A stretch of 64,000 nt of DNA from Mobula hypostoma (lineage: Eukaryota): positions 88,290,001 to 88,354,000 of the forward strand of contig NC_086108.1 of the NCBI RefSeq assembly GCF_963921235.1, given 5' to 3'. Below are positions 521-61,202 of the stretch, in pieces; position 1 is the first letter of the stretch; every line of letters begins with the position of its first letter. The position numbers and the translations under genes are program-made. The notes below the pieces were generated by a model. The model worked only from the letters and a program-made list of their open reading frames with translations. It did not search any database and had not been told where the DNA came from.

Positions 521-1861
521 ATGTTAACACAGAACATAGCACCGGCCACAATGTTGAGCCAACCTCTTAACAATCAATCTTGCTCCATAAACTGCAGTTA
601 CACTCAGCCACTTCTCACTGAATCCTGGTTGCCCACATTTATATTTACTCCTCAATAAAAGCTACCCATAAATAATGATGAATTAGTTCTCTGCTTCTCT
701 ACCTGAACAGAATTCCTGGAAGTTCAAACAGCCATTGTCGTGATTAATCGCCTGTTATTTAGTTATGTGTTCATGCAGCAGAGGATGATGGAAATAATAG
801 TATCACTCCCTTGAGAATGCCTGATTCAGTGTCAGAGCTTGAAATGTAAAAGAAAATACACATAGAACCCTATTAATAAAAGACACAAGTATTTAACCTT
901 ATTTAAATCCATACACAAACAAATATGCATTTTCTGCAATTCTAACCCAACGAAGATCATATGTTACAATGATGTTAAATGGCGAGATCACCCAAATAAT
1001 ACATTTGTGGAGTTTTGTTTGGGATGTTGCCACTTGATTTCTTTTCCTAAGTGTTGTTTAGTTTGAAAAATTGGTTTTGATAAGGTTGGGCTGGGGGAGG
1101 GGAGGGAGTGCTGGTATCTATGTGCGAGGGCTGAGTTTAAATGGTGTTATTTTGAATCCAGTAAGAACTATACAAATCCAACATAAATTTGCTTAAGAAT
1201 GAATGTAAGTATTTAAATGCAAGATACTGCAAGTGCTGGAAATCAGAAATAAAAAACTAATGCTGAAAATGTTGAACATACCAGTGAGTGTTTAGTTAGA
1301 GGATCATTAATTACAACCAATAACGTCTGATTCATTTCTGAGATTTTTGAACTCTTTGGGCATTGATGTGAGAATTCTGAAGTTATTAAAACGAATACAT
1401 AAACCCACTATGATTTTATAAAGCAATACAGTAACCGAAAGAACTCGATTCATCTTAAGACAGTTGTGTATTCCCAGTGAAAGACCATCCCTACAGAGAC
1501 ACAATATGATTTTTCTTTTAGCTAAGGCAGATCTTTGCTGCAATGGATGAACTGAAGTGATAGCAACAATAGTCTTGCTCAGACACGACGTGTCAGGAGT
1601 AGATAAGTTACAGTGTGTGTAAAAGAATGGACTGAAAAAGTGCTGGATGAATTGATTTGTTGTATCACAAAAGAGCGGATGGGGAAATTCAGTCATCTGA
1701 AGTTTTTGCATCGGATGCTTTTGTTGGGAAATCAGAAAAACTTCCACACACGTTGAACTAATGTGGCATGTCTGATATTCTTTAATACAATGATGTAATA
1801 TAGCCACTGGAAGATGTAAACCAGGTAGTTAAGATATTCAAAATAAATGGCAGATTATTAA

Positions 1862-1925
1862 GCAACACACATCAAAGTTGCTGGTGAACTCAGCAGGCCA
1901 GGCAGCATCTCTAGGAAGAGGTACA
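1862..1925 (-). mobile_element. 64-nt PLE terminal-repeat micro-insertion
   Basis: Near-identical to the reverse complement of ~47195-47258; perfect 13-bp TSD GGCAGATTATTAA at 1849-1861 and 1926-1938. Confidence 0.85.
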
Positions 1926-2008
1926 GGCAGATTATTAACATGGAAGCAAAATACCACACAGATTGAAAGCCTGAAATAAAAAAGAAAACTAGAAATACTC
2001 AACACCAG

Positions 2009-6312: not shown

Positions 6313-6817
6313 AATTTTACTTGGAAATAATGTAAATGTAATTTACTTCTGGTGAGGTGATCATAGAATGGAAATGACAATGCAATTTTGAAGCATTTAT
6401 AGGAATGTGACTTCTTAAAACTTCTCTCTCTAAGCTAAGAGCAGCAAATGTTAAGTATAAGACAGATTGGTTTTTGACTTGAAATGAAACCAACGGTCAT
6501 GCGAAACAAGAAGCAAAGTAGAGTTAAGAGCAAATCAGATTGTCCATGATCTTATTGAATTAGAGAGCAGGCTCTGGTTCCCTGCTCTTTGATATGTTTT
6601 TGCATTGGAAAGTTTGCCGGCCTATTACTGAAATACTATGAGTCAGGCAGAGCCAACAATACAACTCAGCACTGAAAGGAGATTAAAGACCACACATGTT
6701 CTAGGAAAAAAATAATTGCAGCTTGTAGGTTCCCAGACACTGACCTTGTGTAATACCATCCTCATTTTCAATGACTGGGACCTTGTCAACCCTTTAGAAA
6801 ATATCACTCCCGAATCA

Positions 6818-7015
6818 ACACGCCCAACATGCTGGAGGAACCCAGCAGTTCGGGCAGCATCCGTGGAAACAATCAGTCAACGTTTCGGGCTGAGACCCTC
6901 GTCCTGAAACGTTGACTGTTCGTTTCTACGGATGCTGCCCGACCCGCTGAGTTCCTCCAGCGTGTTGTGCGTGTTGCTTTGACCCCAGCATCTGCAGAGT
7001 ATTTTGTGTTTACGA
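6818..7015. mobile_element. Fold-back (palindromic) PLE terminal-repeat insertion
   Basis: Inverted arms at ~6816-6889 and ~6903-6976; 15-bp TSD ATCACTCC(C/T)GAATCA at 6803-6817 and 7016-7030. Confidence 0.85.
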
Positions 7016-7104
7016 ATCACTCCTGAATCACCTCATTTTGCAAAGTCTTTTTTGCTCAGCTTCTTCTCTAACTGTTGGCACATTTTATTTTTTGCTTATG
7101 TTAG

Positions 7105-10577: not shown

Positions 10578-12578
10578 GCCAAAGGTGACACGACTGTGGC
10601 TAACAAGAGAATTCAAAGCCAACGTAAAAGCTAAAGAGAAGGTATATTATAGAGCAAAAATTTGTGGGAAGTTAGAGGACTGGGAACAGAAGGCAACTAA
10701 AAAAGTCATTAAAAAGGTAAAGATGGAATACGAAAGTAAGCTAACCAATAATATTAAAGGGGATATCAAAAGTTTCTACAGATACATAAAGTGTAAAAGA
10801 GAGGCGTGAGTAGATATCAGACCGCTGGAAAACGATGCTGAAGGGGTAGTAATGGGGGACAACGAAATGGTAGATGAACTGAATAAGTATTTTCCATCAG
10901 TCTTCATGGTGGAAGTTCCAGGTGTCAGGGGTCATGAAGTGTGTGAAGTTACCATAACTACAGAGAAGGTTCTTGGGAAACTGAAAGGCCTGAAGGTAGG
11001 TAAGTCACCTGGACCAGATGGTGTACACCCCAAGTTCTGAAAGAGGTGGCTGAAGAGATCGTGGAGGCATTAGTAATGATCCTCCAAGAATCACTAGATT
11101 CTGGAATGGTTCCGGAAGACTGGAAAATTGCAAATGTCACTCCACTCTTCAAGAAGGAAGAGAGGCAGAAGAAAGGAAATTATAGGCCAGTTATTCTGAC
11201 CTCAGTGATTCGGAAGATGTTGGAGTCAATTATTAAGGATGAGACCTCAGGGCATTCGGAGGCACAATGATAAAATAAGCTGACAGGCCATTTTCCTCAA
11301 GGGAAAATCTTGCCTGACAAATCTGTTGGAATTCTTTCAAGAAGTAACAAGCAAGGTAGACAAAGGAGAATCAGTTGATGTTATGTACTTGGATCTTCAG
11401 AAGGCCTTTAACAAGGTACCACACATGAGACTGCTTAACAAGCGACCTCAGAAGTAACATTCAGATTCATTACCTGGTCTTACGATATTACAGGAAAGAT
11501 TCTAGCATGGATAAAGCAGTGGCTGATTGGCAGGAGGCAAAGCATGGGAATAAAGGGAGCCTTTTCTGGCTGGCTGCCAGTGACTAGTGGTGTTCCACAG
11601 GGGTTTGTGTTGGGACTGATTCGTTTTCCATTGTATGTCAATGATTTGGCTGACAGAGTTGATGAATTTGTTACAAAGCTTGCAGATGATATGAAGATAG
11701 GTGGAAGGGCAGGTAGTTTTGAGAAAGTAGAGAGGCTACAGAAGGACTTAGACAGATTAGGAGAATGGACAAAGAAATGGCAGATGGAATACAGTGTCAG
11801 AAGGTCATGCATTTTGGTAGAAGAAATGAAAGGGTTGCCTATTTTTTAAAATGGAGAGAATATACAAAAAGCTGAGGTGGAAAAGTACTTTGGAGTGCTT
11901 GTGCAGGGCTCCCTAAAGGTTAATTTGCAGGTTGAGTCTGTGGTGAGGAAGGCAAATGCAATGTTAACATTCATTTCAAGAGGACTAGAATGTAAAAGCA
12001 AGGATGCAATGTTGAGACGTTATAAAGCATTGGAGAGGCCTCACTTGGAGTATTGTGAGCCGTTTTGGGCCTTTTATCTAAGACAGGATGTACTGAAACT
12101 GGAGAGGGTTCAAAGGAGGTTCACAAAAATGATTCCAGATTGAGTGGCTTGTCTCATGAAGAACGTTTGATGGCCCTGGGCCTGTATTTGCAGGAATTCA
12201 GAAGAAGGGTGACCTCATTGAAACCTATCAAATGGTGAAAGGCCTTGATAGGGTAGATGTGGAGAGGATGCTCTCTATGGTGGGAGAGTCTAATACTAGA
12301 GGACACTGCCTCAGAATAGAGGGGCGTTCTTTTAGAACAGAGATGAGGAGGAATTTCTTTAGCCAGGGAGTGGTGAATCTGGCAGCTTTGGAGGCCAAGG
12401 CTTGATATATATTTAAGGCAGAGGTTGATAGATTCTTGACTGGCTTGAATGGATACAGGGAGAATGCAGAAGATTGGAGCTGAGAGGAAAATTGGATCAG
12501 CCGTGACGGAATGTTGGAGCAGACTCCCTGGACCAAATGGGCTAATTCTGTTCCTATATCTTATGGTCTTATGGTCTT
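10578..12578 (+). mobile_element. CR1 LINE, 5'-truncated, degenerate ORF2 (RT)
   Basis: KSPGPDGVHP, PEDWKIANVTPLFKK, NYRPV, VTSGVPQG, KLADDMK, RPHLEYC motifs across frameshifts; (TTATGGTC)n tail. Confidence 0.93.
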
Positions 12579-14274: not shown

Positions 14275-16058
14275 GGGGGGAGAAGATGAAACATGAAGAT
14301 AAGCTATCCAATAATATCAAAAATAATATCAAAAGTTTTTCTCAGATCAATAAAGAGTAAATGAGAGGTGAGAGTAGAGATTGGATTGCTGGAAAATGAT
14401 GCCAGACAAGGAAATGGCAGGTCAACTGAATAAGTATTTTGCATCAGTCTTCATTGTGGAAGACGCTAGTAGTATGCTGGAAGTTCAAGGAGCAGAAATG
14501 ACTGCAGTTGCTATTACTAGGGAGATGGTACTTGGGAAACTGAAAAGTCTAAATAAGTCACTCGAACCTGATGGACTACACTCCAGTGTTCTAAATGAGG
14601 TAGCTTGAAGAGATTGTGTAGGCATTAGTAACGATCTTTCAATAATCAATAGATTCTAGCATATTTCCTGAGGACCGGAAAGTTGCAAATGTCACTTCAC
14701 TCTTCAAGAAGGGAGGGAGGCAGAGGAGAGGAAATTATAGGCCACTTAGCCTGACTTCAGTGGTTGGGAAGATGTTGGAGTCGATTATTACGGACGTGGT
14801 TTCGGGGTGCTCTGAGGCGCATAGCAAAATAGGCCAAAGTCAGCATGGTTATCTCAAGGGAAAATCTTGCCAGACAGATCGGTTGGAATTCTTTGAAGAA
14901 CTAACAAGCAGCATTGACAAAGGAGATTTGGTGGATGTTGTGCAAGGTGCCGCACGTGAGTCTGCTAAATGAGGTAAAAGCCCAGGGTATTACAGGAAAG
15001 ATACTAGAATGGATAGAGCGTTGGCTGATTGGCAGGAGGCAAAAAGTGGGAATAAGTGATCTTTTTCAGATTGACTGCCAGTCACTAGTGGTTTTCCAAA
15101 GGGGTCTGTACTGGAACCAGTTCTTTTTATGTTACACATTAACAATTTGGGTGATGAAATTGATGACTTTGTGGCAGGTAGCACTGAGGAAGCAGAGAGG
15201 TTGCAGAAGGACTTAGATTAGTAGAATGGGCAAAGAGATGGCAGATGGAATATAGTGTCGGAAGTGTATGGTCATGCACTTTGACGGAAGGAATAAAAGC
15301 ATAGACTATTTTCTAAATGGGCAGAAAATTCAAAAGTACAAGGTGGAAAGGGATTTGGTAGTCCTCGTGCAGGATTCCCAGAAGGTTAATTTGTGGGTTG
15401 AACAGGTGGCAAGGAAGGTAAATATGATGTTTGCATTCACTTCAAGAGGACTTGAAAATAAAAGCAAGGATGTAATGCTGAGTCTTTATAAGGCACTGGT
15501 GAGGCACTTGGAGTATTGTGAGCAGTTTTGGGCCTCTTATTTAAGAAAAGATGTGCTGATATTGGAGCGGGTTCAGAGGAGGTTCACGAGATTGATTCCG
15601 GAATTAAAGGGTTATCATATGAGCAGCCATTGAAGGTTCTGGGCCTGCACTCACTGGAATTTAGAACAATGAGGGGTATCTCAATGAAACCTATCAAAGG
15701 TTGAAAGGCCTAAACAGAGTGGATGTGAAGAGGATGTTTCCTTTGGTGAGGGAATCTAGGACTAGAGGGCACAGCCTCAAAATAGAGCGAAATCTATTTA
15801 GAACAGAGATGAGGAGGAATTTCTTTAGTCAGAGGGTGATGAATCTGCAGAATTCATTAACACAAGCAGTTGTGGAGGCCAGGTCATTGGGGGCAGTTAA
15901 GGCAGAGGTTGATAGATTCTTAATTAGTCAGGGCATGAGGGCTATGGGAGAAAGCAGGAGAATGGGGTTGGGAGAAAAATGGATCAGCCGTGATGAAATG
16001 GTGCAGCAGACTCGAGGGACTGAATGGCCTAATTCTGCTCCTTTGTCTTATGGTCTTA
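14275..16058 (+). mobile_element. CR1 LINE, 5'-truncated, degenerate ORF2
   Basis: QSQHGYLKGKSC, HLEYCEQFW, ERVQRRFTRLIP, EMRRNFFSQRV; TCTTATGGTCTTAT tail. Confidence 0.92.
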
Positions 16059-16994
16059 TCGCGTGCTTTCATACCATTGTGAAGAACAGTCATACCATAG
16101 GCAAATATTTAAGGCATCCCTGCCAAGGAACCTCAAAAAAAATTGGCATTAACTATTTCCTTTATGCTAAACAGCAAAATGTTCAGAGGCTTTGCTATAA
16201 ATAGTCAATACTGTCGTGTTAAGACAAGGTGTGGAGCCAGAACAAGTATGGTTGAGCAAAGGGCAAAAAAATAACTGAGTAAGCGATGGAATGTAGCACA
16301 TCTTAAAGTCAAGGTGTATCTGACAGCATCTTGTTTATCCACTCTATTTACAACAGTGGTGATTAGGGGAAGAAACAACACACTGTGATGAAATATGTGG
16401 AATTTGAAACATATTTATTTAGTGGTGAGTGTTCACCAAAAGAAAACTTCTGAGCACCTGCTGAGCCTGTTGCCATTTGGGAAAAGCACAGATGCTAGGA
16501 AAGGAGCTGAGAAATGCACGATCAGAGACAAACAACAACAGCAGAAGAGCTGAAGAGACGGGGGAACAAAAGGGCTGCACGTCTCCAGAATGACGACGAG
16601 AGGCATGAGGGTGGCAGATAAACCAGAAATGATGCCATCAAAAGTGTCCTTCGTTAAAAAAGGAGCAGCTATGTTTGCTTTGCTACGTGTTGTTCTTCAA
16701 TAAACTGAGGTTTTGTACTTCAGTTTCCAAAGCAAAGCCATACCAATAGCATTCAGGAAAATTTAATGTTCATCCTGGTCACATCAGATTGCACTACCCT
16801 TCTCTCATAGGGTGCCCCAACGGGTCACCCCATTGTCTAGTTACGAATATTACTGAGATCATTCCATTGAGCAGGTATAGCTTTGATCTCTCAAACTGAT
16901 ACATTAATTTACAATGCCTGTTCCTAATCTACTATATGGTATATTTAGTATAAATCTTTTGACTTAAATTACTGTTAATTTTGTGTGTGTGTGT

Positions 16995-18953: not shown

Positions 18954-20453
18954 CAGTATTCACCCTCCCACTTGGAAATATTTGTGTTATATTGCTTTAC
19001 AACATTGAATCACAGTGGATTTAATTTGGCTTTTTTTTGACACAGATCAACAGAAAAAGACTCTTTCACGTCAAAGTGAAAAGAGATCTCTACAAAGTAA
19101 TCTAAATGAATTAAAATAAAACTCAAAATAACTGATTGTATAAGTATTCACCCTCTTCAAGTCTGTATTTAGTAGGTGCACCTTTGGAGGCAATATACAG
19201 ACTTGAGTCTGTGTGGAGAGGTCTCTATCTGAACACTACAATTTTGCCCCATTCTTCTTCAGAAAACTGCTCAAGCTCTATCAGATTACATGGGGAATGT
19301 AAGTGAACAGCCATTTTCAAGTCGAGCCACAAAATCTCAATTGCATCGAGATCTGAACTCTGACTTGACCATTCCAGGACATTAACTTTATGGTTTTTTA
19401 AGCCATTCCTGTGTAGCTTTGGCTTTAAGCTTGGGGTCCTTGTCTCGCTGGGGAAAAAAACATTCTCCCAAATCGCAGTTTTCTTACAGACTGCATCAGG
19501 ATTTCCTCCAGGATTTCCCTGTATTTTGCTGCAATCATTTTATCCTCTACTTTCACAAGTCTTCTAGGGGCCTGCTGCAGTGAAGCAGCCACCACCATGC
19601 TTCATGGTAGGGATGGTGTGATTTTGATGATGTACGGTGTTTAGCTTACACCAAACGTAGCCAAGATTTCATGTGAGTTTCTTTCAACACTGGCTTTCTC
19701 TTTGCCACTCTCCCATAAAGCTGCAACTGGTGAAGCATCTGGGCAACAGTTGTTGTATGCACGGTCTCTCCCATCTCAGCTCTGAAGATTGTAACTCCTC
19801 CAGAGTTGTCATAGGTCTCTTGGTGACCTCCCTCACTAGTCCCCTTCTTGCACGGTCACTCAGTTTTTGAGGATGGCCTGCTCTAGGCAGATTTACAGCT
19901 GTGCCATATTCTTTCCACTTCTTCATGATTGTCTTAACTGTACTCCAAGGGATACTCAGTGACTTGGAAATTTTCTTGTATCCATCTCCTGGCTTGTCCT
20001 TTTTGATAACCTTTTCACAGAGTTGCTTGGAGTGTTGTTCTGTCTCCATGGTGTAGTTTTTGCCAGGAGACTGACTCAACAGCAGCTGGACCTTCCAAAT
20101 ACAGGTGTATTTTTACTACAATCAATTGAAACACCTTGTCTGCACAGGTTTTCAAAAATAGATATTCATTTAGCTAACCGTGTGACTTCTAAAACCAATT
20201 GGTTGCACCAGTGATGATTTGGTGTGTCATATTAAATGGGGGCGAATACTTTTATCAATTATTTTGTGTTTTATACTTGTAATTAATTTAGATGATTTTG
20301 TAGAGATCTGTTTTCACTTTGGCACGAGAAAATGTTTTTCTGTTGATCAGTGTCAAAAAAAAGCCAAATTAAATCCACTGCGATTCAATGTTGTAAAATA
20401 ATAAAACATGAAAACTTCTGTGGGGGGGTGGTGAATACGTTTTATAGGCACTG
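18954..20453 (-). mobile_element. Tc1/mariner DNA transposon, Passport-like IR/DR type, defective
   Basis: TA-CAGT...ACTG-TA ends; ~200-nt TIRs with repeated GTATTCACC; paired-like HTH ORF 19684-20079 (GYKKISKSLSIPWSTVKTIMKKWKEYGT...RPMTTLEELQ). It interrupts a Rex1/Babar tail (18750-18950 and 20456-20566). Confidence 0.92.
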
Positions 20454-22505: not shown

Positions 22506-22719
22506 TACCTAATTTTGCCTATCACCAAAAAATTCATGAAACACCATACAAATTGAAGCAAAAATAAAAATTTTAAAAATTATGTCTAATTATAGTTGCA
22601 ATTTCCTGTCATGACTCTCCCTCCCTTTCTCCAACTCTTCTTCTCTCCCTGCTTATTCTCTCACTCTCCTCCTTCACTCTTCCTCCTTTCTCTGTGTCCC
22701 ACCTTCCCCAAACTTCCTT

Positions 22720-22978
22720 CAACACACATCAAAGTTGCTGGTGAACGCAGCAGGCCAGGCAGCATCTTTTTTTTTGGAGAATAATATGTTGGACCTGGAG
22801 GCTGGTGGGGTGGTAGGTGAGGACCAGGGGAACCCTATTCCTAGTGGGGTGACGGGAAGATGGAGTGTGAGCAGATGTACGTGAAATGGGGGAGATGCGT
22901 TTGAGAGCAGAGTTGATGGTGGAGGAAGGGAAGCCCCTTTCTTTAAAAAAAGGACATCTCCCTCGTCCTGGAATGAAA
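22720..22978 (-). mobile_element. PLE internal ORF fragment fused directly to a terminal-repeat end
   Basis: Minus ORF FFKERGFPSSTINSALKRIS...RVPLVLTYHP, then an A-run, then the pLTR 3' end. Confidence 0.8.
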
Positions 22979-23134
22979 CTCCTTCCCTCTGTTTTGCTGT
23001 CCTCTCCCTCTTCCCCCACCTTTCTATACTCTAGCCCCAGCAGAGAAAAGTTAAAATGACAGTTGTAATATGAAATATCACTGGAAAATGTTTGGGAAAA
23101 TTCACTACATGCATGCTTTTTTATCGCCCACTAG

Positions 23135-23210: not shown

Positions 23211-23980
23211 GTAAGCAATTTGGTAAAACAGAGAAGTCCAAAGTTTGCCTTCTGTACTATGAAATTTTATGATTCTCAGAGTTAATAGTTACTATTTATT
23301 AGCTCTCAGATTTAGCTCACATCCTTTTTAATGGTTCAATGATAACTCCGGATTATTTTTTGCAAAATCTGTCAAATCTATCATCAAATTCCTAAGTGCC
23401 GGAGAAATGGCACTCCCTGAAATATTTTCTCCAATCTTGAGTACACAATGATGCAATCTTTTTTCAATGGGCATAAACCATTTGGATAATTTCCAAATTG
23501 ATAGGAATGGATTATTCTGTGGAAATAATTCTTTGAATTTATCTAATTCCTTTGTGAAAAACATATAAGAGTCTAGCTTTGTACAAGTGCATGGTTGTAA
23601 TCACCCTAAAAAGCCCAGCAAATATATGAACCTTGCACCATTAATAACTTGGGCTGCTGTTTACTTAGCAACTCTCCGAGTAAGCAGAGTGCATTAGATT
23701 ACAGAGAAATCATATCCACTCTATCCTGAAGCAAATTCATACTCACATGTTGTAAGAAGAAAAATTAGTTGATGAAAGGGAAGAGTGAATGGTGAAAGTT
23801 TTATTTACTCACCAGTAGGAGATCTGAAAGGTCGATGTTGATATAAATTTAGGTCAATATACAGATATAGGTATTTGGAAGAGAAATGGTTTAACAGGGG
23901 AGGGTTTGTGTTGAACCATATATCTGTGACTTATAGTTGCCCTGTTCCTGTTACTTAATGTGTCTTCTGTTATGTTCTAG

Positions 23981-33151: not shown

Positions 33152-34177
33152 AAAGGAAGGGGGTTGATGCCAGAATTAAAAGGTAGGGGAGGGGAAAGAG
33201 GCTAGCTGGAAGCTGATAGGTGAAGCCAGGTGGGTGGGGAAGGTCATGGGCTGGAAAAGAAAGAATCTGATAGGAGAGGAGAGTGGAGAATGGGAAAAAA
33301 AGGACACCCGGGGGAAGTAATAGGCAGGCGAGAAGAAGTGAAAGGTCAGAGATGGAATGGAAGAAGGGGGAGGGGGAAAATATTTTTCACCAGAAGGAGA
33401 AATTGATACTCATGCCATCAGTTTGGAGGGTACCCAGATGGAATATAAGGTGTTTGCTCCTCCATCCTGAGGGTCGCCTCATCTTGACACAAGAGGAGGC
33501 CATGGATTGACACGTTGGACGGGAATGAGAATCGGTATTAAACTGTTTGACCACCGGGAATTCCCGCTTGTGGTGGATGGTGCAGAAGTGCTTGATGAAG
33601 CGATCCCCCAATTTACGACGGGTCTCACCAATGTACAGGAGGCTGCATCAGGAGCACCGCACACAATAGATGACCCCAGCAGATTTGTAGATGAAGTGTT
33701 GCCTCACCTGGAAGGACAGTTTGGGGCCCTGAATGGAGGTGAGAGAGGACAGGGATAGCACTTAGGCTGCTTGCAGGGTTAAGTGCCTGGGAGAAGGGGC
33801 AAATGTACAAGGGCATCACAGAAGCACCGATCAGTGTGGAAAGGTGGGGGTGGGGGGAGGTAAAAATATGTTTTGTGGTAGGATTCTTCTGGAGATGGCA
33901 GAGGTTGGGAGGATAATGTGTTGGATGTGGAGAATGGTAGGGTGGTAGGTAAGGACAAGAGGGAGTCTATCATTATGGCAACAGGAAGATGGGGTGAATG
34001 CAAATGTATGGGAAATGAAGGAAATGTATTGAGGGCAGCATCGATAATAAAGTGAGGGAAACCCTGTTCTTTAAAGAAGGAGGACATCTCAGATGTCCAG
34101 GAATGGAAAGCCTTGAGAATAGATGTGCAGAGGTGAAGAAGCTGAGAAAAGGGAATCCGGTGGGAAGAGGTATAGTC

Positions 34178-40529: not shown

Positions 40530-41192
40530 CTATATCAGGTTGGCTGTACTGGAAGAGACTTGTCTTTGTCTCCCCTCTGTAACAGCTGCTGGTATGACAT
40601 AAATGCTCAGTTCCGCTCTACCTGAAGTCCCAGTTACTATGTGGGGACAAAGCTTGAAGATTAAACTGTAGAGAAGGAGCAGGAGGAGAATGATAGAGCC
40701 GAACAGTGTAATAGCAACTCCTGCAATTAACATGTCACTCCAGGACCTGACTGAGAGATGAGGATCGGAATTTGCCAGGATTATCAGCACATAACCACAT
40801 ATGAGTATTACAGATCCAGCAATTAAAATAAGCAAATAATCAATTGACCCTCCACTTCTTAGCTTGTTAATTTGGGTCCGGTTCCTCATACAGTTCATAT
40901 CCTGGATTGCAGAGCTCAGCAGCTGCTTTAGGAGGATGCCTAAAGCTAGGAGGCACAGGACAGTTCCAACTCCCAGACGCCATTCACTCGATTTACTCGT
41001 GGCTGTGGACAATAAAACGATTCCTCCCAATCCAGTGGCCAGGATCAACACCACAGCCACGGAGTAACATAAGATTGAGCGCTTAAGGTCCTGGAACCAC
41101 CACAGTTCCACCTGATCCTCCAGAATGCTCTGTTGGATACGAAAAGGATTTGCTGGTGGTCGGCCAGGTGTGATCTCAGATTGCTCAGACAT
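40530..41192 (-). CDS. tmem125: Transmembrane protein 125, 220 aa, four hydrophobic segments, single coding exon
   Basis: MSEQ...LEDQVELWW...GLGGIVLLSTATSKSSEWRLGVGTVLCLLAL..LLKQLLSSAIQDMNC...LRSGG...SSSTANLI matches the TMEM125 signature. True start ATG at 41192, directly after a tttctccag acceptor. Confidence 0.95.
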   Translation of the reverse strand: MSEQSEITPGRPPANPFRIQQSILEDQVELWWFQDLKRSILCYSVAVVLILATGLGGIVLLSTATSKSSEWRLGVGTVLCLLALGILLKQLLSSAIQDMNCMRNRTQINKLRSGGSIDYLLILIAGSVILICGYVLIILANSDPHLSVRSWSDMLIAGVAITLFGSIILLLLLLYSLIFKLCPHIVTGTSGRAELSIYVIPAAVTEGRQRQVSSSTANLI

Positions 41193-43494
41193 CTGGAGAA
41201 ATTGTCCACAGTCATTCAAAAGGAAAATCAATATCTATCTAAGTCTTAGAAATATACAAGATTTTGAAAACACATATAGCAAAACTCAAAATTGTTCTAC
41301 TGATTGAATAATTATTTGACAAAAATCTTCAAAGTTGTTCAGATTAATTTAGAACCTATAGATAACAAGAGAACCGTGGTCTTAATAGATAGTCATGTCA
41401 CATCAGATCAGAGAACAGAAACTTCAGGAATTGGAAAGCAGTATTCACCACATTTTTGAACATGATTTTCATTTGAATAGACATTATAAATTCCATGTTA
41501 TGCTTTTCAGTATCACCTTTTCATTCATGTTCTTCAGTACATCCTTGATACCACAAATAAAGCAGCCTTGGATATATATGCCCGGACTTTTATTTGTCTT
41601 GGATGTTAGTAAGTTTGCAGAAGTTCACAGGAAAATCATAGGTAACATTATTCCAACCATCCATAAGTCTGAGCCTGTCTTATGAAATCACTCAGTGAAT
41701 TCAAACACACTATCTTCTCTAATTCTCTTCCTTACTCAGTTCCATAACGATGAGGTGAATTTCCCATCTCTCATAATGTGGTCAAGGAAAAGATGCACTT
41801 CTGATGATTTGCTGAGCCTGGGGCTATCTCAGAAAACAGGATAACATAAAGTTCACCGATGGATGACTATTGCTGCTTTTCTTAATGCAATCTTCAATTC
41901 AGAGCTATCTCTCTGTGTTAAATCTCGCCAGCATCCTGCTCCTTATTAGTAATGAGTTTCAGCCAATGGTGCAATTTCACACCGGATGGCTTTCTCAAGG
42001 TAAGGCTAACGTCTAATGAAGATGCAACTAAGAGGTGCAAACCTGATGTGAAAGAAGGCAGTCCTCCAGTCCACAAATAGTCCATGCGCACAGATTGTGA
42101 TGGTATTCTGCAGTTCCAAAGGGTATTTGCTGTTTACAAGCTGAGTTTGCAAACAGTGAGAATTCTCCAGGCTTTGTTTATCAGGGTGAGCTTACTGTCT
42201 CATTCCAATTACGCTGACTCCAGGTTAGACGTTTCTTCTGCTATATCACCTTGATCTTTTCCAGCCTGTCACAGGGCAAGGTGTTTAATTTCCAGATCGA
42301 TTACTGCCGTCTTAAAGCAGGTAACTGATTAGTCCAGCTCTGGTGGTGGAGTGAGTTGCTGCTTCAGACAACTATCTCGGAGAAGAAAGTAAATCCATTG
42401 TCAGTTTTCATCCTGCAGTTTGGCAGATTTTTCCAGAATCTTGTGGGTGGAGCTTGCTGTGCTGTTTTCCAGTTTCAGGTAAATCTCTTGTGAGCAAGCT
42501 TTGACTCTGCCTCCACTTTTGCTCCCAAGAAGATTCAGGTCCTACTATTGTTAGACCGTGCCTTTTGACAAGCTTTGTGTTGTGTTCAAATAATCCAGCC
42601 ACTTGGGCAGTTTGCAGACAGAATGGCTTGTACAACAAGCCAGTCAAAGTGCTTTGTTTAACTAAAACCTTCCTTGGTGCATTTATAATTTGGGTAGTTT
42701 ACTCCAGTGTTTCACCTGGAACAGTCAGCCACTTCCACTTAAGGTGGACTTCAGCAAATACAGAAAAATTTTACATGTACTAAAAGAAAATCTCTGATCC
42801 ACAGAAACATAAAAAGAAAATGCTTGTAATTTTAAATATGTGTGCCAGATCCCATAAAATATCATTAATATTAAAAATAGTAAATTAATGTCAGATAGAG
42901 TTTTCTAGTTTCCCTTGAAGAGAAAAAGAGCAAAACAGTTTTATATTAATACAAAGGCTTAACTCACTATCTGGCACTTTTTAAATATGTCTAATGAGTA
43001 TTGGGTCAGCCTTTGCCTGGATTACACACACACTTCCTTTGTTTTCTTACTGCCATGAGCTTCTCTTGCTTCATGCATTATACTTTATTTCTGGTCCCTG
43101 GTGTGTGAGTGTGGTCTTTGTTCAATGAATAGATCCTTTCTGTAGTTGTTATGCAGCTGGAAAATGGTGGAATGGTCGACTGGTGCTTCTGAAGAGCTGA
43201 AATGTCAGCTGGTGCCATCTCTCCATAGGTAACATGTCCTCTTGTCTTATAAATAATGGAGTCCTTTGGGGTATGACAATTGTCCTAATCTGAATGCCTG
43301 GCCACGTGGTGTAATGATTTAGTGGTGTGATTAGCATAATACTGCTGGTATTGTTGGAAGTTTTCTGAAAATAAAATCCCAATAATTTATCAGCTTTTTG
43401 ACAATGTCATTCGATTGAATCAAATATAGAGGCAAACCTTTCAGCCCATCAAACTAGTGGAAATGCCTTAAATGAGATAACCATTTAATTGATT

Positions 43495-44590: not shown

Positions 44591-45460
44591 TTTTCTGAAC
44601 CAACGTGAACAACCTCAATTGCTGCCTCAGTAGAGCAACACTATAACCACTTTGGCCACTTTGCACCATGATGGACTTTTTTTTGTTCTATATGTTTTCT
44701 TCTTGTAAAAAAATGTGTATAATTTATGCATAGTTTATGTTTTTCTTGTGAATTTTGCTATGTGCCGACACAGTCATTTATAAAGATTCTTAAATTCTCT
44801 TGACTCTTCTGCAGCCAAGAGGAACCTCATATCAGGCATCAAGAGGGCCAAGGCTGCCTATGCACAAAAACATTCAGGAACACCTGACCAATAATGATCC
44901 ACTGACTTGCGTGGCTGGGTATCAAGGGCATCAAACAGTATGGCTGATTCACACCTCCGCTCACTAATCCACTCCTCCACAACCCCAGATACCATGACTT
45001 CATCATTTCTTAGCAGTCACGTTGTGCCTAGCATTACTTTATGGACATACAATTAAACGATCTCATGTATTTATATTTACTGTGTTTATTACTATTATGT
45101 TCTTCATCTTTTGTTACACTGGCTACATCAGATCCAGAGTAACAATTATTTCATTCTCTTTTACACTTGTCTAATGGAAATCTTAAAGATGAAGATGATT
45201 TTAATTTTCCTCTGTGTCTCTCTTTAACACTCCAGTTGTAAAATTAGCCTTCTTGTATTGTCCTTCCTTGATGACAGGTGAACATATATATCCAAGGTTT
45301 CTGGTATTATATACATTAAAATTATACTATTTAAGTTATATTATCTCCTCAAAACACAGCAGAGGAAAGTATGACAGCCTGTGTGCTAGTGTGTAGCTGC
45401 AGTAGCAATGTTGATGGGTTTCACCGGGCTCATGTGAGAAAGTATATAAGAGAGAATTCC

Positions 45461-45694
45461 TCAAGTAACACACATAAAAGTTGCTGGTGAACGCAGCAGG
45501 CCAGGCAGCATCTCTTGGAAGCGGTACAGTCGATGTTTCGGGCCGAGACCTTTCGTCAGGACTAAGGGTCTCGGCCCGAAATGTCGACTGTACCTCTTCT
45601 TAGAGATGCTGCCTGGCCTGCTGCGTTCACCAGCAACTTTTATGTGTGTTGCTTGAAATTCCAGCATCTGCGGATTTCCTCGTGTTTGCGTTTT
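45461..45694. mobile_element. Fold-back (palindromic) PLE terminal-repeat insertion
   Basis: 93-nt inverted arms (45461-45553, 45564-45656) with 7 mismatches and a 10-nt spacer; TSD-like TAAGAGAGAATTCC / TAAGAGAGGATTTC. Confidence 0.9.
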
Positions 45695-46189
45695 TAAGAG
45701 AGGATTTCAGATGTTTTGAAACATTCATCTGATCCTGCAGCCATCACACTTTCCCATTAACAATTATAACATAAAGATAAGTTTGTTTGACAAATCTACA
45801 TCAAAACACCTCACTGCCCAAATCACAGACACACTCTCATCCTGCACTGGCCATTTATTGCTGCTGTTTCACAGATTTGCATGTCTGCTTGTTTTATTAT
45901 AATAATGCCAGTAACTCCACACTGTCTTACATAAGCATGCACCTCACCGTTTATGTCATACTGTTAATATTCAGGCCATGCCACTCAGAGACTTTTTCTA
46001 ATCTTATTTTGTAACTGTATGAGCTGGATCATAACTATACAGTATGCGCGGTGTGTGACTACATGGACTGTGCCTTGCACCTTCACCCCAGAGGGACAAT
46101 GTTTCATTGAGCTGTATCCATGTGTGTGGTTGAATGACAATAAACTTGGGCTTGAAACATACAGTGAAGCGCATCCCTTGCATCAAATC

Positions 46190-46402: not shown

Positions 46403-46552
46403 AGAACATATATGAGCAGTGCTAACATTTAATGTGACTTCAGTGTCCGAAGTAAAGTAGGAATGTTCAAATACAGAGAAGTAATGTGCTTAGATGACGT
46501 ACTGCCTGCTAATAAGATCTGAGGATTTGTTGAATGATGAGTTCTCTGCTAC

Positions 46553-47290
46553 ACCTGTGAGTCGGCTGGGGTGATATACTGCGCCTGGTGCTCCTGATGT
46601 GGCCTTCTATGTATTGGCGAAACCCGACGCAGACTGGGAGACCGCTTTGCTGAACACCTACACTCTGTCCGCCAGAGAAAGCAGGATCTCCCAGTGGCCA
46701 CACATTTTAATTCCACATCCCATTCCCATTCTGACATGTCTATCCATGGCCTCCTCTACTGTAAAGATGAAGCCACACTCAGGTTGGAGGAACAACACCT
46801 TATATTCCGTCTGGGTAGCCTCCAACCCGATGGCATGAACATCGACTTCTCTAACTTCCGCTAATGCCCCACCTCCCCCTCGTACCCCATCCGTTATTTA
46901 TTTTTATACACACATTCTTTCTCTCACTCTCCTTTTTCTCCCTCTGTCCCTCTCACTATACCCCTTGCCCATCCTCTGGGTTTCCCCCCCCCTTGTCTTT
47001 CTCCCCGGACCTCCTGTCCCATGATCCTCTCATATCCCTTTTGCCAATCAACTGTCCAGCTCTTGGCTCCATCCCTCCCCCTCCTGTCTTCTCCTATCAT
47101 TTTTGGATCTCCCCCTCCCCCTCCCACTTTCAAATCTCTTACTAATTCTTCCTTCAGTTAGTCCTGACGAAGGGTCTCGGCCTGAAACGTCGACTGTACC
47201 TCTTCCTAGAGATGCTGCCTGGCCTGCTGCGTTCACCAGCAACTTTGATGTGTGTTGCTTGAATTTCCAGCATCTGCAGAATTTCTGTTG
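46553..47290 (+). mobile_element. Young 5'-truncated Penelope-like element: GIY-YIG endonuclease, 3' region and terminal repeat
   Basis: Manual translation of 46553-46864: TCESAGVIYCAWCS*CGLLCIGETRRRLGDRFAEH...PVATHFN...LEEQHLIFRLGSLQPDGMN (one stop); 16-bp TSD TCTCTGCTACA(C/T)CTGT at 46543-46558 and 47291-47306. Confidence 0.92.
47160..47195 (+). ncRNA. Minimal type I hammerhead ribozyme (PLE-associated, dimer type)
   Basis: aguc-CUGACGA-a-gggu(cucg)gccu-GAAA-C-GUC^-gacu: stem I aguc/gacu, 4-bp stem II with tetraloop, palindromic ACGU in place of stem III, GUC cleavage triplet at 47189-47191. Confidence 0.8.
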
Positions 47291-47526
47291 TCTCTGCTAC
47301 ATCTGTTTGTTTTTGCAATCAAGTACACAGTCTAATTACACTGACTGTTCATTATGTTCGAGCCCCTGCCCCCCACTCCCGTGACATTGAAAGGTTGTGC
47401 CACATCCCACTATCTCAGTGAAAGGAACAGACTTGAGATTTGCTTGGGTTCAGGTGCTTATTTAGGTCATTATCTGGTATCCCGTGCAGTACCCTCACCA
47501 GGACCTTCTCAACGTTCTCAAAATTC

Positions 47527-47710
47527 ACAAGCAAAAGAAAATCTGCAGATGCTAGAGATCCAAGCAACACACACAAAATGCTGGAGGAACTCAGCAGGCC
47601 AGGCAGCATCTATGGCAAAGAGTACAGTTGACATTTGGGCCTGAAACATTGACTGCCCTTTTTTCTATAGATGCTGCCTGGCCTGCTGAGTTCCTCCAGC
47701 ATTTTGTGCA
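47527..47710. mobile_element. Fold-back PLE terminal-repeat insertion
   Basis: Inverted arms at ~47572-47637 and ~47640-47708; decayed TSD GTTCTCAAAATTC / GTCCCCAAATTTC (10/13). Confidence 0.8.
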
Positions 47711-48427: not shown

Positions 48428-51400
48428 TAAAGACTTTCTGAATTTTTCCCATCTGTAAAGAATCAAAAATTATAATCTTACCATGGACCAACCACATAGA
48501 CATGAGAAAACAAAGATACCCCACTGATCTAAAAAATGATTATTTTCAAATATACTCCAGAAAGTACTTGCACAAAATGTTGCAGTTGAAGATAATGTGT
48601 AAGCCTTACTGATTTCTTGATTTTGTGTATATACTGAATTCTAAAATTAGCTTTTGTATATTGGTAGTGAAGTAGGCCATGATAGTTTGATAATTAAACA
48701 ATTGACTGAGTTGTAAGAAATAAACACAATCAATTATATTTACATACAGAAAAATGTAACTGTAGCCCTCTCACTGGGGCTCATATGCAAAATTGGATTG
48801 ATAGATAACTCCACTAACAGCCACCTGACTCTGCAATGAGAAGGCAATATGTTATAATAATATACGTCTGGGTCGGTATGGTTTGTGTTTCAACTAAACA
48901 GGAAAGCTGGGAAGTTCTGATTAAAGGAACCTTGATATGAACCTTGATAAATACCGCCATACAGAATTACTGGTTGCCAAGAAATGACAATTCGTACACC
49001 AGAACATTTTACCAGCAGGACACACTACTTTTGCAAAATACTACTAAAATGAATTACCTCACAGCATAGCAGTAGAAATTTTAACCAGGGCATTACATTC
49101 ACTCCCCCACCAAAAATAGTTATGTCCTTTTGACTTTGGAACTTATTAAATCCATTTGGAATTTATTAGATCGTCACAGTATCCAAATGAATTTCATGAT
49201 TTCAGGGCCCACACCCCGCAATCCATTTGTAAATGGCAGTAACATATCTCATTATTGGGATAGCCATAACACTCTGTTTCCCCAGTGTGTTATATGCCAG
49301 CCTATCTGGGGGTTTCCTGACTCTCTGAGACATTCTTATCTCATCTTCAGCCTCAGGCACTCCTTGGGACTGTTCCTGTTTACTTGTGGGTGCTTCCCCT
49401 TATCCATCACTTGTATCTTCCAGCAGCTCAGGTCCCCCTGTCACCTGACTGAGCTCGGCTACATCCCCAATTACATTGGAGCCCAGTTTCCCCTCACTGA
49501 CTATCATCATGTCTGCCTGTCCACTGCTAGTCCCCCCACCCCGCTACATCTGAGTCAGAGTTGGGAGATTCAAACATCTCTTCATCAATTCTTGGAGAGT
49601 TTGCATAAGGGAAAGCATACACACTCATCCCCTGAGTCTGTACGGTATTCCAGTATTCAGTGTTTGGTTTCTTTTCAGTTCTTTCTGCTGATTGCCTTTC
49701 TGTTCTCCTCCTTCTGTGTAGAGTTCCAAGTCAGGTTCTGGACCAACACATACCTCCTGCCCTAAAGGCAAAAAGTGATTCCAATGGAGATTTTGACTGG
49801 GCCATTCCCATCTTCTGGCTTCAGCACCTATACAAGGGTCATCTCGCTTGGCGGCTGCCAGTTCCGCAGGATTCAAGGCAGGCAACAACTTCACATACCG
49901 AGTGGTCAAGTTGCAATATGTTTGTGGAAGGGTACAACCAGAAGCTCCTAAATGATCCACAGCTCTATCATGCCATAGCCTTTCCTCTGATTTCCCCACT
50001 GTGCAAAGCAGGCACATTGCATTAACACCAAAGGCAGAAACACCCTCCCACTCTCCGTCCATTTCTGGCACCTCATGGGAATGTCGGGACAATGCATCTG
50101 CATCGATGTTCCGCCTCCCTAAACAATATTTAAGGCTGAAATCATAAGCAGATAATGCCACCAACTAGTGATGATCCATGGCATCCAACTTCGCTGAGAT
50201 CAGGATATAAGTGAGTAGATTGTTGTCAGTCCTCTGCTTGAACTTGGCACTATATAGACAGTCACTTAATTTATCCACCACACCCCATTTCAATGCCAGA
50301 AAATCCAATTTGTGTATAGGGTAGTTTCGTTCAGAGGGTGACAGACTCTGGTTGATTAAAGCAACAGGTTTCAACCGTTTGCCCTGGTCCTGATATAGAA
50401 CACTGCCTAAGCCCTCACGGCTGGTGTTGGTATGCAGTACGTACAGAAACTGGGGGTTGATTCAAAGGGTGGCTTACTCTGGAATAGTCCTTCACAAATC
50501 TCCCACAGAATCTCCCATGGTACCCACAGAATCCAAGGAATGAGCAAAGGGTGCTCACGTTCTTGGTCCCTGGTCATATGGTCACCGCCTCTTTCTTGGG
50601 AAGATCTGTAGCCACTCCATCCTGAGAAACTATGTGCCCGACGTGGTTGACTGATGTCTTACAGAACTGGCACTTGTTCAGTGACAGTTTTAACCCTTCA
50701 GCTTTCAGGCAGTCCAGCACCTTCAGTTGCCTCGTCTCATGCTTCTCCAGTGTACACCCGAACACTGTGAGATCATCCAAGAACGCCATTACTCCAAGCA
50801 TAATCATGACCCCAACAGTCTTCTCCACAACACATTGGAAAGTAGCTGGTGCTCCTGACATACGCTGGGGCATTCTTTCAAACTGGAAGAATCCAGGTGG
50901 ACATATAAATGCCATATTCTCCTTATCAGCTTCATTTATGGGTATCTGATAATACCCACTCCTTTGGTCCAACACACTAAACCATTTTGCTCCACTCAGA
51001 CAGGCCAGAGCATTCTCAATCTGTAGAACAGTACTTTGGTCCAGGACTGTACATCAGTTCAATGAACAATAGTCAACAGACATTTGTACCTTCCCATTCT
51101 TCTTCCTTGCCACCACTTGCCTCAGTGATAATTCCAGCTTCCTTCAGTTTCAGCAGGTGCTGCTGAATATCTTCCACCTCTGCCGGTGCTAACTGTCAAA
51201 ACCTTTTGCTGAAAGCGGTGTCCTTCATCACCTGAATAGTGTGGAAAGCAAACCACATTGAACTTATCAGTAGAGAAGACATTTTCGAACTTTAACATCT
51301 TCTCCAATGTTCTCTTTTTTCCATCCTTCAGGTACCGAGGAGTCATGTAAGTTGATTGACTTTGCTGTTAACTTTCCTGATCCAGGAGATTGTCTCTCTG

Positions 51401-52979: not shown

Positions 52980-54261
52980 CATTCCCGGTTGAAATGTCCA
53001 TCCTTACCATAGTTGTAACAGAAAATACTGGTCGCTTACCTTGTCAAGAGACCCTGTCAGCAGCAACCCTCTGCTTATTATGTCCGACTGGTGGGCCTGG
53101 CTTCTTATGAGACCTGTTACGCTTGGAGGCAGCACAAGCCATCATCAACCGAGATACCGCTGGTTTTTCACTACATCCTGCAAACCCCAGGGGTCGCTTC
53201 AGCAACAGAGGTTACTACTGAGGACTTTGCCCTGCTGATGGAGGCCTTCCACTCCTCCAGTGTATTTTCTTCCTTTCTTAATTTAATTCTCTGATCAGTT
53301 CAACGAATGAGGGAAGGGGAAGAATCTTATGAAATATTTGAATGCTTAAAGCAATCACATCACATGACAGTGCGCCCTTCACCACTAGCTCCATCCTTAA
53401 TTGATTTATCTCAGCCAGTTGAATGGCCCTTTTATAGCACAAGCAATGCAATTGTCTCTCTAGCCTGAAAATGTAGGCAGAAAGTTTCGCCCCTTTCTCC
53501 TGGAATGTGTGCCTAAACTTAATCATTAGCTCTGCTGGGTTGTTTGTTGTGCCAAAAACATTTTCTAATGCTTGCATGTTCTCTACGGGCTTGACCAACG
53601 GGTTTTCTGCCTTTAGAGATCTTACCACCTCAGTATCCGGACCTTGTAGACTCTCTACCAGTCGCTGTCTTTTCATAATATCTGAGCACTGCCTCTCATC
53701 TGATAACTGACCCAAGTCTCATGTTCTTCCTCCCCACTGGGGGTGGGCTTGATCCCAGAGAACATTCTCAGCCTACAATAACTTTGGTTCCCCATAGGTA
53801 CACTTTGGCATTTATCAACCAGTGATGTAATTGCCAAAGCCAGCTCAAAATTTCCATCAACCGCTGAAGGACCCATTAGACCTTTCACATTAGATAATGC
53901 CTTCCACTCACTTCACAGAGATGAGAACAACTTGCCTTTAAGATCTTCACCCTCAGCTACATGCCCCACTTCTCTAAAAATATGGACTGCCCATGGCTCC
54001 GCCTCTCCAGGTGCCCTTGTCCTATCAGGCACTGCAATTTGAATTACGTCACTACTAGTCTGGACTGACATGACATCCTTACCAGCTAATTGATCAAAAC
54101 ACCATTCAACCGGCATAACTTTCCCCAATACTTTTATAGAACTCAGCACTCTAATTAGCAGTTCATCAGGGCTTCAGATGCCCACCCCATTCAGATCAAA
54201 AGCATTTATTTGTGGATAACCTCTTTGAAACACACCAAACCTTAATCCCTGCGGCGTCCAT
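52980..54261 (-). pseudogene. PNMA-like gag remnant of the Gypsy element
   Basis: YCRLRMFSGIKPTPSGEEEHETW, KRQRLVESLQGP, ALENVFG, TFQEKGAKLSAYIFRLE, FCYNYGKDGHFNREC; broken by frameshifts. Confidence 0.85.
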
Positions 54262-59371: not shown

Positions 59372-61202
59372 ATATGGAAAGATTGCAGGATTTATGAACA
59401 TTTGGAGAGGCATCATATGATTAGGAATAGTCAGCGTGGCTTTGTCAAAGGCAGGTTGTGCCTTACAGGCCTGAATGAATTTTTTGAGGATGTGACTAAA
59501 TACGTTGATGAAAGTAGAGCTGTAGATGTAGTGTATATGGATTTCAGCAAGGCATTTGATAAGATACCCCATGCAAGACTTATTGAGAAAGTAAGGAGGC
59601 ATGGGATTCAAGGGGACATTGCTTTGTGGATCCAGAACTGGCTTGCCCACAGAAGGCAGAGTGATTGTAGATGGGTCATATTCTGCACGTAGATCAGTGA
59701 CCAGTGGTGTGCTTCAGGGATCTGTTCTAGGACCCCTTCTCTTTGTGATTTTTATAACTGACCTGGATGAGGAAGTGGAGGGATGGTTTCGTAAATTTAC
59801 TGATGACTCAAAGGTTGGGGGTGTTGTGGATAATGTGGAGGGCTGTCAGAGGTTACAGCGGGACGTCAATAGGATGCAAAACTGGGCTGAGAAGTGGCAG
59901 ATGGAGTGTGAGATGGTTCATTTTGGTAGGTTAAATATGATGGCAGAATATAGTATTAATGGTAAGACTCTTGGCAATGTGGAGGATCAGCGGGATCTTG
60001 GGGTCTGCAGGCTGACAGATGGCATACAGTGTATTGGTCTTCATCAACCGTGGGACTGAGTTTAAGAGCCGAGAGGTAATGCTACAGCTATATTATGTGT
60101 TCGTTCATCGTCGACGTCGATGAGGACCTTGATACCATTATGATGGTGTCGAGACTAGCACGTGACTTGGATTTAAGTGAGGGAGAGTTGTGCAGCATCT
60201 GCCTCACTCTCTGTTCCCAATTCCCATCTAGATCCAGTGGCAAGACAGAGTCAAGACAGCTGGAGATGGGACTAGGCGCAGTGGATGACCAGGACATCTT
60301 CTGTGTCTTGTCCTGCTCTACACGTTCCACGACGCTTGCAGAAACCGCCTTCTTGACCGTTGGACCTTCCATTGGTCTCGTCTGCTCAATCCGCCGGAGT
60401 CTGTTTTCACATGCTGGGATAGGCAACTCCCTATCTCACCGAGTGTTTGAGACCCGTCGGCTACACTCACCTGGTTTAGCTGGCTTGTCGAAGTCATTAC
60501 CTGGGGTGTGGCCGCTGTCGCATGCAAACAGCTACGGAGAGCCACAGGTGAGAGCTGAGTGCCAGGTGGAGACCAAAGGTGGACGTGACATGTTCCCCCA
60601 CCAGAGGTGCTACCCCTCCCTGACACCCCATACACCCCTACAGCTATATAGGACCCACTTGGAGTACTGTACTCAGTTCTGGTTACCTCACTACAAGAAG
60701 GATGTGGAAACTATAGAAAGGGTGCAGAGGAGATTTACAAGGATGTTGCCTGGATTAGGGAGCATGCGTTTTGAGAATAGGTTGAGTGAACTCGGCCTTC
60801 TCTCCTTGAAGCGGCGGAGGATGAGAGGTGACCTGATAGAGGTGCATAAGATGATGAGAGGCATTGGTCGTGTGGATAGTCAGAGGCTTTTTCCCAGGGC
60901 TGGAATGGCTAGCACGAGAGGGCATAGTTTTAAAGTGCTTGGAAGAAGGTACAGAGGAGATGTCAGGGTAAGTTTTTTTACGCAGAGAGTGGTGAGTGCG
61001 TGGAATGGGCTGCCGGCGGCGGTAGTCGAGGCAGAAACGATGGGGTCTTTTAAGAAACTCCCAGATGGCTACATGGAGCTTAGAAAAATAGAGGGCTATG
61101 GGTAACCCTAGGTAATTTCTAAAGTAAGTATGTGTTCAGCACAGCATTGTGGGCTGAAGGGTCTGTACTCTGCTGTAGTTTTTATATGTTTTTATATTTC
61201 TA
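59372..61202 (+). mobile_element. CR1 LINE RT/3' region, interrupted at 60094-60637
   Basis: SQRGFVKGRLCLTGL, VYMDFSKAFD, VTSGVLQGSVLGP, KFTDDSK, HLEYCTQFW, MRGDLIEV. Confidence 0.93.
60094..60637 (-). mobile_element. ~545-nt non-coding retroposon (RTE-derived SINE-like, tentative) nested in CR1
   Basis: Perfect 12-bp TSD CTACAGCTATAT (60082-60093, 60638-60649); CR1 reading resumes on both sides. Family and strand are tentative. Confidence 0.7.

Follow-up and report, generated by a model that had tools for sequence, protein, structure and literature searches.

The window, by which is meant the whole 64,000-nucleotide stretch of Mobula hypostoma DNA analyzed here, carries exons of host genes and many pieces of mobile elements. 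One exon of the host gene AP1M3 (AP-1 complex subunit mu-3) is 98% identical to AP-1 mu from Mobula birostris. A second host feature is a coding exon of the TMEM125 family, on the opposite strand. As the AP1M3 exons end at 23221 and TMEM125 lies on the minus strand, no sense-strand host gene was found over the copy studied here among the host-gene exons in the window; non-coding or distant transcripts may still cross it. This placement, in turn, means that the copy is either intergenic or antisense to a 5' intron of TMEM125.

Several unrelated elements have left remnants in the same DNA. Pfam recognizes a PNMA/gag-like piece, two reverse transcriptase (RT) fragments, and the helix-turn-helix (HTH) of a Tc1/Sleeping Beauty-type transposase, at 53281-53718 (-), 50577-51053 (-), 59595-60056 (+), and 19687-20112 (-). 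Another repeat family is represented by 10720-12572 and 14283-16059 (+), which are about 72% identical over 1.9 kb and have many shorter relatives in the window.

Table 1. Features of the locus and its surroundings, in positions of the window.
Feature	Position	Strand	Remarks
AP1M3, seven exons	2922-23221	+	
TMEM125-family coding exon	40533-41234	-	coding near 40533-41192; acceptor-like site just before ATG
Left TSD copy	46543-46558	+	11 nt exact at 46543-46553; family contigs diverge before 46552
5'-truncated Penelope-like insertion	46559-47290	+	about 730 nt; one hammerhead; no reverse transcriptase part
C-terminal GIY-YIG endonuclease remnant	46559-46864	+	in-frame stop at 46595-97; CIG replaces YIG at 46610-18
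Pyrimidine-rich 3' untranslated part (UTR) of the pseudo-LTR	46865-47159	+	80% C+T over 46865-47157
Candidate 3' splice site, read from the sequence	47140-47161	+	branch-point-like heptamer at 47140-46, short pyrimidine tract, two AG (47156-57, 47160-61) abutting stem I
Stem I, 5' strand	47160-47163	+	
Core C3-U4-G5-A6-N7-G8-A9 (N7 = C) and extra A at 47171	47164-47171	+	core proper 47164-70
Stem II (G·U, G-C, G-C, U·G), loop CUCG	47172-47183	+	arms 47172-75 with 47180-83; pair 10.1-11.1 is G·U (47172/47183)
G12-A13-A14-A15.1, palindromic ACGU, GUC triplet	47184-47191	+	GAAA 47184-87, ACGU 47187-90, GUC 47189-91
Stem I, 3' strand	47192-47195	+	
Downstream pseudo-LTR end, predicted hairpin	47196-47290	+	99 nt of element past the predicted cut
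Right TSD copy	47291-47306	+	

The element that carries the motif had been described, from its letters only, as a young, TSD-flanked Penelope-like copy with a minimal hammerhead, and that description is supported; the hammerhead lies in the 3' end repeat. The TSD is real: beyond the exact core, 15 of 16 positions agree when the repeat is extended, and a match this good was equalled in one of 2000 random locus pairs. The last few bases of the TSD also fit the element, which makes the 5' junction ambiguous, between about 46552 and 46559. Judged by its sequence, the copy is young but decaying. Out of 189 variant rows, the 40 that were listed include at least eight sites at which it differs from about 90% or more of the family depth in sequencing run X1.

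The hammerhead does lie downstream of a GIY-YIG endonuclease, 295 nt 3' of the endonuclease stop and within the pseudo-LTR of the insertion. What lies upstream of it, however, is a broken fragment, with its stop codon and its YIG-to-CIG change. Copies of the family end at their 3' sides in two classes, near 47257-62 or near 47290, as seen in window copies and in loose contig ends behind 47257 and 47291. Since these classes are about 30 nt apart, the last roughly 30 nt correspond to the optional "tail" known for Penelope elements, where it measures 30-40 bp (PMC8557442, PMC3846280; these and the other papers named here are cited from the portions of them that were accessible). One reading frame remains open through the ribozyme and the tail (47100-47290, +). 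In a tandem form, the element's ORF may begin with this frame.

The 88 amino acids that follow the in-frame stop identify the relatives of this element. Among 112 candidates, 12 were longer relatives. The nearest, an RT-endonuclease protein from Mobula hypostoma itself, is 94% identical to the 88-residue remnant, and others come from Hypanus and Leucoraja. The endonuclease fragment of the studied copy has no Pfam match of its own. Its nearest relative carries a YIDD motif and a weak match to the Pfam GIY-YIG model (E 5e-4, below the curated cut-off); in all, five relatives have such weak matches, likewise below the cut-off, and the relatives bear YIDD-type RT motifs.

Five of the six relatives scanned also carry a CX4CxxC linker, as does an older copy in the window near 33750. 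The studied copy was truncated downstream of this point, and both linker and RT lie outside it. In the accessible text of Craig et al. (2021, PMC8557442), a CX2-5CxxC linker between RT and endonuclease is absent from Penelope/Poseidon elements and present in Neptune and Nematis. Thus, by the linker, the ray family is likely of the Neptune/Nematis type. With those elements (PMC8557442) it shares the C-terminal GIY-YIG endonuclease, the zinc-finger-like linker (in its relatives), 5' truncation, inverted partners, and the optional 30-40 bp tail. A Poseidon-type family had been considered, and was dropped once the relatives showed the linker. Apparent relatives in DNA from outside the window were also discarded. 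These were viral contigs (two weak matches of 18-21 amino acids), nine metagenome loci, and three loci in prokaryote genomes; none of the 14 aligns to the element by blastn (E 0.01), and they were therefore set aside as chance.

The motif itself is a minimal type-I hammerhead of 36 bases (47160-47195, +) with every core part in place. Each letter of the CUGACGA and GAAA core and of the GUC triplet was found where the earlier note had placed it, as were the paired strands of stem I (aguc/gacu), stem II with its CUCG loop, and the palindrome ACGU as the only stem III. The GUC triplet ends at 47191, and the cut is accordingly predicted after that base; this position, too, agrees with the standard hammerhead numbering shown in PMC4209133. 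The additional base that separates position 9 from 10.1, A47171, is typical of Penelope minimal hammerheads, and the register that it implies is backed by folding.

The word "intact," which the same note applied to the motif, fits all but one feature. The 11 core positions checked are all correct, and the triplet and both stems are present, but the closing pair of stem II is G·U instead of the usual G-C. Cervera and De la Pena (2014, PMC4209133) call G10.1-C11.1 highly conserved. Yet a hand count of the examples in their Fig. S3 gives G·U at this pair in 8 of 56. For these reasons the motif is best called complete but not optimal.

How exceptional such a motif is was judged with a full descriptor, which demands the cores, three pairs in each of stems I and II, and the 15.2-16.2 pair. 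It matches once in the 64-kb window, at 47160-47195, and in none of 200 dinucleotide shuffles; thus, no second complete hammerhead was found in the window by this descriptor. A looser pattern of the core parts gives four matches in the window, whereas 100 shuffles average 0.2. Each of the six related motifs that the earlier note gives for this DNA exists, with coordinates right within 1 nt, and each has suffered damage to its core, triplet, 15.2-16.2 pair, or stem II. Further copies of the family, missing from that list, lie at 2115(-), 2612(+), 6882(+)/6910(-), 8336(-), 27090(+), 43698(+), and 45554(+), and as a pair at 47532-47708.

The hammerhead models of Rfam match nowhere in the window at E values up to 5, where six Rfam matches of any kind appear. 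Those to mir-789 and psbJ are hairpin artefacts, scoring below the gathering threshold and sitting on long palindromic insertions. The covariation analysis that the earlier note had proposed was run on eight window copies, which are decayed genomic copies and not subfamily majorities; it finds one double-sided change, a number reached by 287 of 500 shuffles. In the same eight copies, 93% of cells pair, against 14-43% with the partners slid, a control that favors a structure derived from these very sequences.

Whether the G·U pair arose by decay of this one copy or was inherited can be asked of the family as a whole. Family depth was taken from four of 24 sequencing runs (X1, X3, X9, and X20), all in the form of contigs, with X1, X3, and X9 devoid of flank coverage; being contigs, they cannot show RNA ends, and no position where many molecules start or stop was reported from them. 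In summed contig depth, which is not copy number and in which read placement favors the reference letter, T at 47183 makes up about 74% in X1, 62% in X3, 54% in X9, and 23% in X20, and C the remaining 26, 38, 46, and 77%. At the CpG site 46595, C holds 90% of depth in X1, and T about 10% or less in X1 and X3. Private CpG decay was thus rejected as the main reading of T47183, which is the depth majority in X1 and X3, unlike T at the CpG site. T47183 is likely, on these sequence data, a lineage variant carried by a source element.

In classic hammerheads, G·U at 10.1-11.1 lowers activity. The accessible portions of PMC11300833 and PMC544870 hold no data on G·U at this pair. As G·U is present in published examples and predominates by depth in two runs, this motif may equal its parent in competence.

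The depth of run X20 has a pattern of its own. Summed depth is about 2.07 million over the end of the endonuclease (46802-33) and over the ribozyme (47154-85), and 2.8 thousand in the intervening UTR (46898-929), about 700-fold lower. Contigs in all four runs have loose ends before 47160. The X20 pattern offers indirect support for constraint at the level of the family. It does not isolate the catalytic core, of course, since the downstream tail is also well covered.

Predicted folding gives a mixed picture. By nearest-neighbor energies, which leave out the tertiary core and protein, the stem II register as drawn has pair probabilities of 0.86-0.95 in the 36-mer, and the alternative register 0.02. 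The monomer, however, is predicted to prefer a rod of -10.0 kcal/mol over the hammerhead shape at -6.0 kcal/mol. In this inactive rod, G5-A6-C7-G8 is paired with the cleavage site. With 30 nt or more of flank, the probabilities of stems I and II drop to 0.05 or less, and the 36-mer as a whole folds no better than its shuffles (z = -0.37). The ACGU duplex alone is worth -1.7 kcal/mol, which leaves the motif without a stable stem III.

A double hammerhead is topologically possible and nested, at -9.5 kcal/mol, or -14.7 kcal/mol with G-C at 10.1-11.1. The minimum for two strands is nevertheless an inactive duplex of -28.3 kcal/mol, in which the pairing probability of ACGU is 0.000. With N7 = U, or with G-C placed at 10.1-11.1, the prediction still yields the inactive rod; these energies therefore describe the family, and do not single out the studied copy. 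Cutting by this copy is doubtful all the same, as it is solo, has G·U where G-C usually closes stem II, is predicted to prefer the rod, and belongs to an insertion that runs on past the cut. Pairing in trans with copies outside the window is possible.

Minimal hammerheads in the end repeats (pseudo-LTRs) of Penelope elements were described in 2014 by Cervera and De la Pena (PMC4209133), with the consensus NNN CUGANGAH G...C GAAAN palindrome NUH NNN, which 47160-47195 matches. The ray motif shares with theirs CUGANGA followed by one extra base, GAAA, a palindromic 15.2-16.2 with no loop III, a short stem I, and U-rich sequence upstream. It shares as well the single 3' motif in 5'-truncated copies and the dispersal of single copies by the thousands. 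It differs in its short stem II of 4 bp, where a G·U closing pair replaces the consensus G-C. Fig. S3 of that paper, in its accessible form, contains no cartilaginous fish species. Thus, the motif passes the sequence tests for Penelope-like minimal hammerheads, in an arrangement that is already known.

What such motifs do is less simple than the earlier note assumed when it took as established that they cleave as dimers. Activity of dimers and trimers is indeed published. In the schistosome case, however, it was low, and the monomer was inactive (Cervera and De la Pena 2014, PMC4209133); dimer cleavage is also attributed to Lunse et al. 2017, as cited in PMC6765202. The hammerhead of the Poseidon element PAc from Anolis carolinensis was inactive unless the element's protein was present (Frangieh et al. 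2024, PMC11167929). According to the accessible part of that report, catalytic mutants inserted normally in vitro, and cutting by the hammerhead was thus dispensable for insertion there; RNA-seq ends at the cut were not found, and uncut RNA was the dominant substrate for insertion. The ray element resembles PAc in having its hammerhead in a pseudo-LTR, in a template uncut at the hammerhead, and in the two classes of insertion ends, 70-100 nt downstream of the cut, that give the tail (PMC11167929). The CX2-5CxxC linker of the ray family, missing in Penelope/Poseidon, sets the two apart.

A type-I hammerhead of Penelope origin is also found in the non-LTR retrozymes (Li, Clavereau and Pollet 2026, bioRxiv 10.64898/2026.07.22.740005), and hammerhead retrozymes were reported in the sole cartilaginous fish sampled in that preprint. 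In retrozymes, non-coding units follow one another in tandem and every unit has its hammerhead, whereas the studied copy is solo and has a coding remnant. Its nearest family copies are separate insertions, not tandem units. No literature on hammerheads of ray Penelope elements was found by a search that lay outside most subscription journals and Repbase; the family may already be catalogued in Repbase or in supplements on bioRxiv.

The 5' ends of short copies bear on a different possible role. The window holds 20 tail-bearing segments of the family, of which seven are long. Of the other 13, which are short, ten begin within 47158-47195 (38 nt, family numbering), and none begins at 47192. With breakpoints read by hand from local alignments of copies 70-98% identical, and against a uniform null that ignores the rise of truncation toward the 3' end, this clustering has a binomial p of 8e-8 to 5e-4, depending on the range; with palindromes counted once, 7 of 10 ends fall in the motif (p 2e-5 to 0.009).

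The closest 5' end to the predicted cut belongs to an insertion of about 65 nt (1849-1938, minus strand; segment 1860-1926). It is 98.5% identical to the studied copy, has a 13-nt TSD, and starts 2-3 nt past the cut. There are also three head-to-head palindromic mini-insertions, each built from two family ends, at 45447-45702, 6803-7023, and 47532-47708. All three join inside the hammerhead, with the 30-nt tail on one arm and not on the other. Two of the three have 8-nt flanking repeats, and 45447-45702 forms, on folding, a nearly perfect hairpin with about 97 bp.

The best explanation, with a probability of roughly 0.85, is that a Penelope-like copy, truncated at its 5' end and broken in its protein, carries at this locus a complete minimal type-I hammerhead in its 3' end repeat, and that here the motif is likely an uncut passenger, not a working ribozyme. 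Element sequence extends for 99 nt beyond the predicted cut; this means that the template RNA was uncut, or rejoined, there. By analogy with Anolis Poseidon, the element's protein would nick its target and begin copying internally, about 99 nt 3' of the cut, with uncleaved (or rejoined) RNA as template. Reverse transcription would then pass the hammerhead and stop inside the endonuclease gene. In a full tandem element, to follow the literature on the family, two motifs would pair via ACGU and exchange their stem I strands, giving a double hammerhead that would cut slowly, likely with assistance from protein. At the studied locus the motif is single, has no known transcript on the sense strand, is predicted to fold as the inactive rod, and would travel as a passenger.

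A strong form of the earlier note's inference would make this copy an active ribozyme, cutting after 47191 within the cell on meeting a second copy. The parts that such activity needs are intact, a nested double hammerhead can be drawn, and schistosome dimers and trimers do cut at a low level. But this is the sole complete copy in the window, two strands would rather form the inactive duplex with ACGU unpaired, and the G·U pair costs about 5 kcal/mol relative to G-C in the double-hammerhead fold. Moreover, the Anolis motif needed its protein and left no detected RNA ends at its cut (PMC11167929, as accessible), and the insertion here reads through the cut site. Activity in this strong form is therefore improbable. 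An engineered tandem dimer has about an even chance of cutting weakly in vitro; that RNA from this locus is cut to a meaningful extent in vivo is unlikely.

Still further from the passenger reading lie two extremes. Chance resemblance to a hammerhead would account for the silence of Rfam and for covariation not above shuffles in eight copies, and has next to no probability in view of the empty shuffles of the full descriptor, a position and layout that fit the published Penelope consensus (PMC4209133), and pairing that drops when partners are slid. Adoption by the host, as a regulatory ribozyme for a neighbor such as TMEM125, is very improbable. The copy, as the one complete motif in the window, does lie upstream of the TMEM125 coding exon, at a distance of about 6 kb, and the TMEM125 ATG directly follows its acceptor-like site, so that an upstream intron may span the copy. 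The motif would, however, be antisense to the TMEM125 transcript, and the copy is young; its youth alone explains the integrity of the motif. A structural role at the level of the family is a more tentative matter, and can be true together with the passenger explanation. Here, the near-palindromic rod would stall or redirect the element's RT, setting the 5' ends of miniature and head-to-head copies, with cleavage secondary. The ends clustered in the motif but absent from 47192, the palindromes joined within it, each with one tailed and one untailed arm, and the Anolis protein, which nicks both strands and extends them from two start sites (PMC11167929, as accessible), all speak for this role. 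It is nonetheless rather unlikely as judged now: numbers are small, breakpoints were hand-read against a uniform null, the 36-mer folds no better than shuffles, and Penelope elements are already known to have inverted truncated partners and palindromes at junctions (PMC8557442, PMC3846280).

To our knowledge, all canonical Penelope-like elements are described as having hammerheads, and a single copy therefore matters little. The family is of some use in asking what role these hammerheads play should insertion not require cleavage. It is very abundant and young, has two stem II variants that occur naturally, and shows insertion ends gathered in the motif; such a family would let cutting be tested against a structural role across the genome.

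The sequence just upstream of stem I resembles a 3' splice site, and in Penelope of Drosophila virilis an intron ends at helix I (PMC4209133, as accessible). The family letter at 47146 gives TACTAAC in the majority of X1 and X3 depth, and at 47145 most of the X20 and X9 depth carries another letter. Of six older copies examined, five retain a pyrimidine tract whose final CAG lies at the start of stem I. Elsewhere, the element has one weak donor-like site. AG occurs once in the UTR against 2.6 expected, a depletion that is not significant (P 0.24), and GT..AG ends are found at none of the 15 contig joints listed, of 142. The splice-site idea is thus unsupported.

These ideas can be combined. 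In the combined view, the ray hammerhead would be a switchable rod, mostly "off," that stops or redirects RT and abuts a splice-like site, so that splicing would rewrite stem I, in the manner of the intron of Drosophila Penelope; the youngest lineage would have spread with G10.1·U11.1 and C7, both favoring the off fold. A stop or redirection of RT at the rod would explain why miniature and head-to-head copies begin inside the motif and not at the cut. The combination as a whole is unlikely.

One further insertion, at 22719-22984 (-) in the last AP1M3 intron, departs from all of these. It is a young chimera, made of a Penelope RT-thumb coding piece, nine A, and a 48-nt family end, and it skips endonuclease, UTR, and ribozyme. 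From its sequence, it looks like the product of a template jump onto prematurely polyadenylated RNA.
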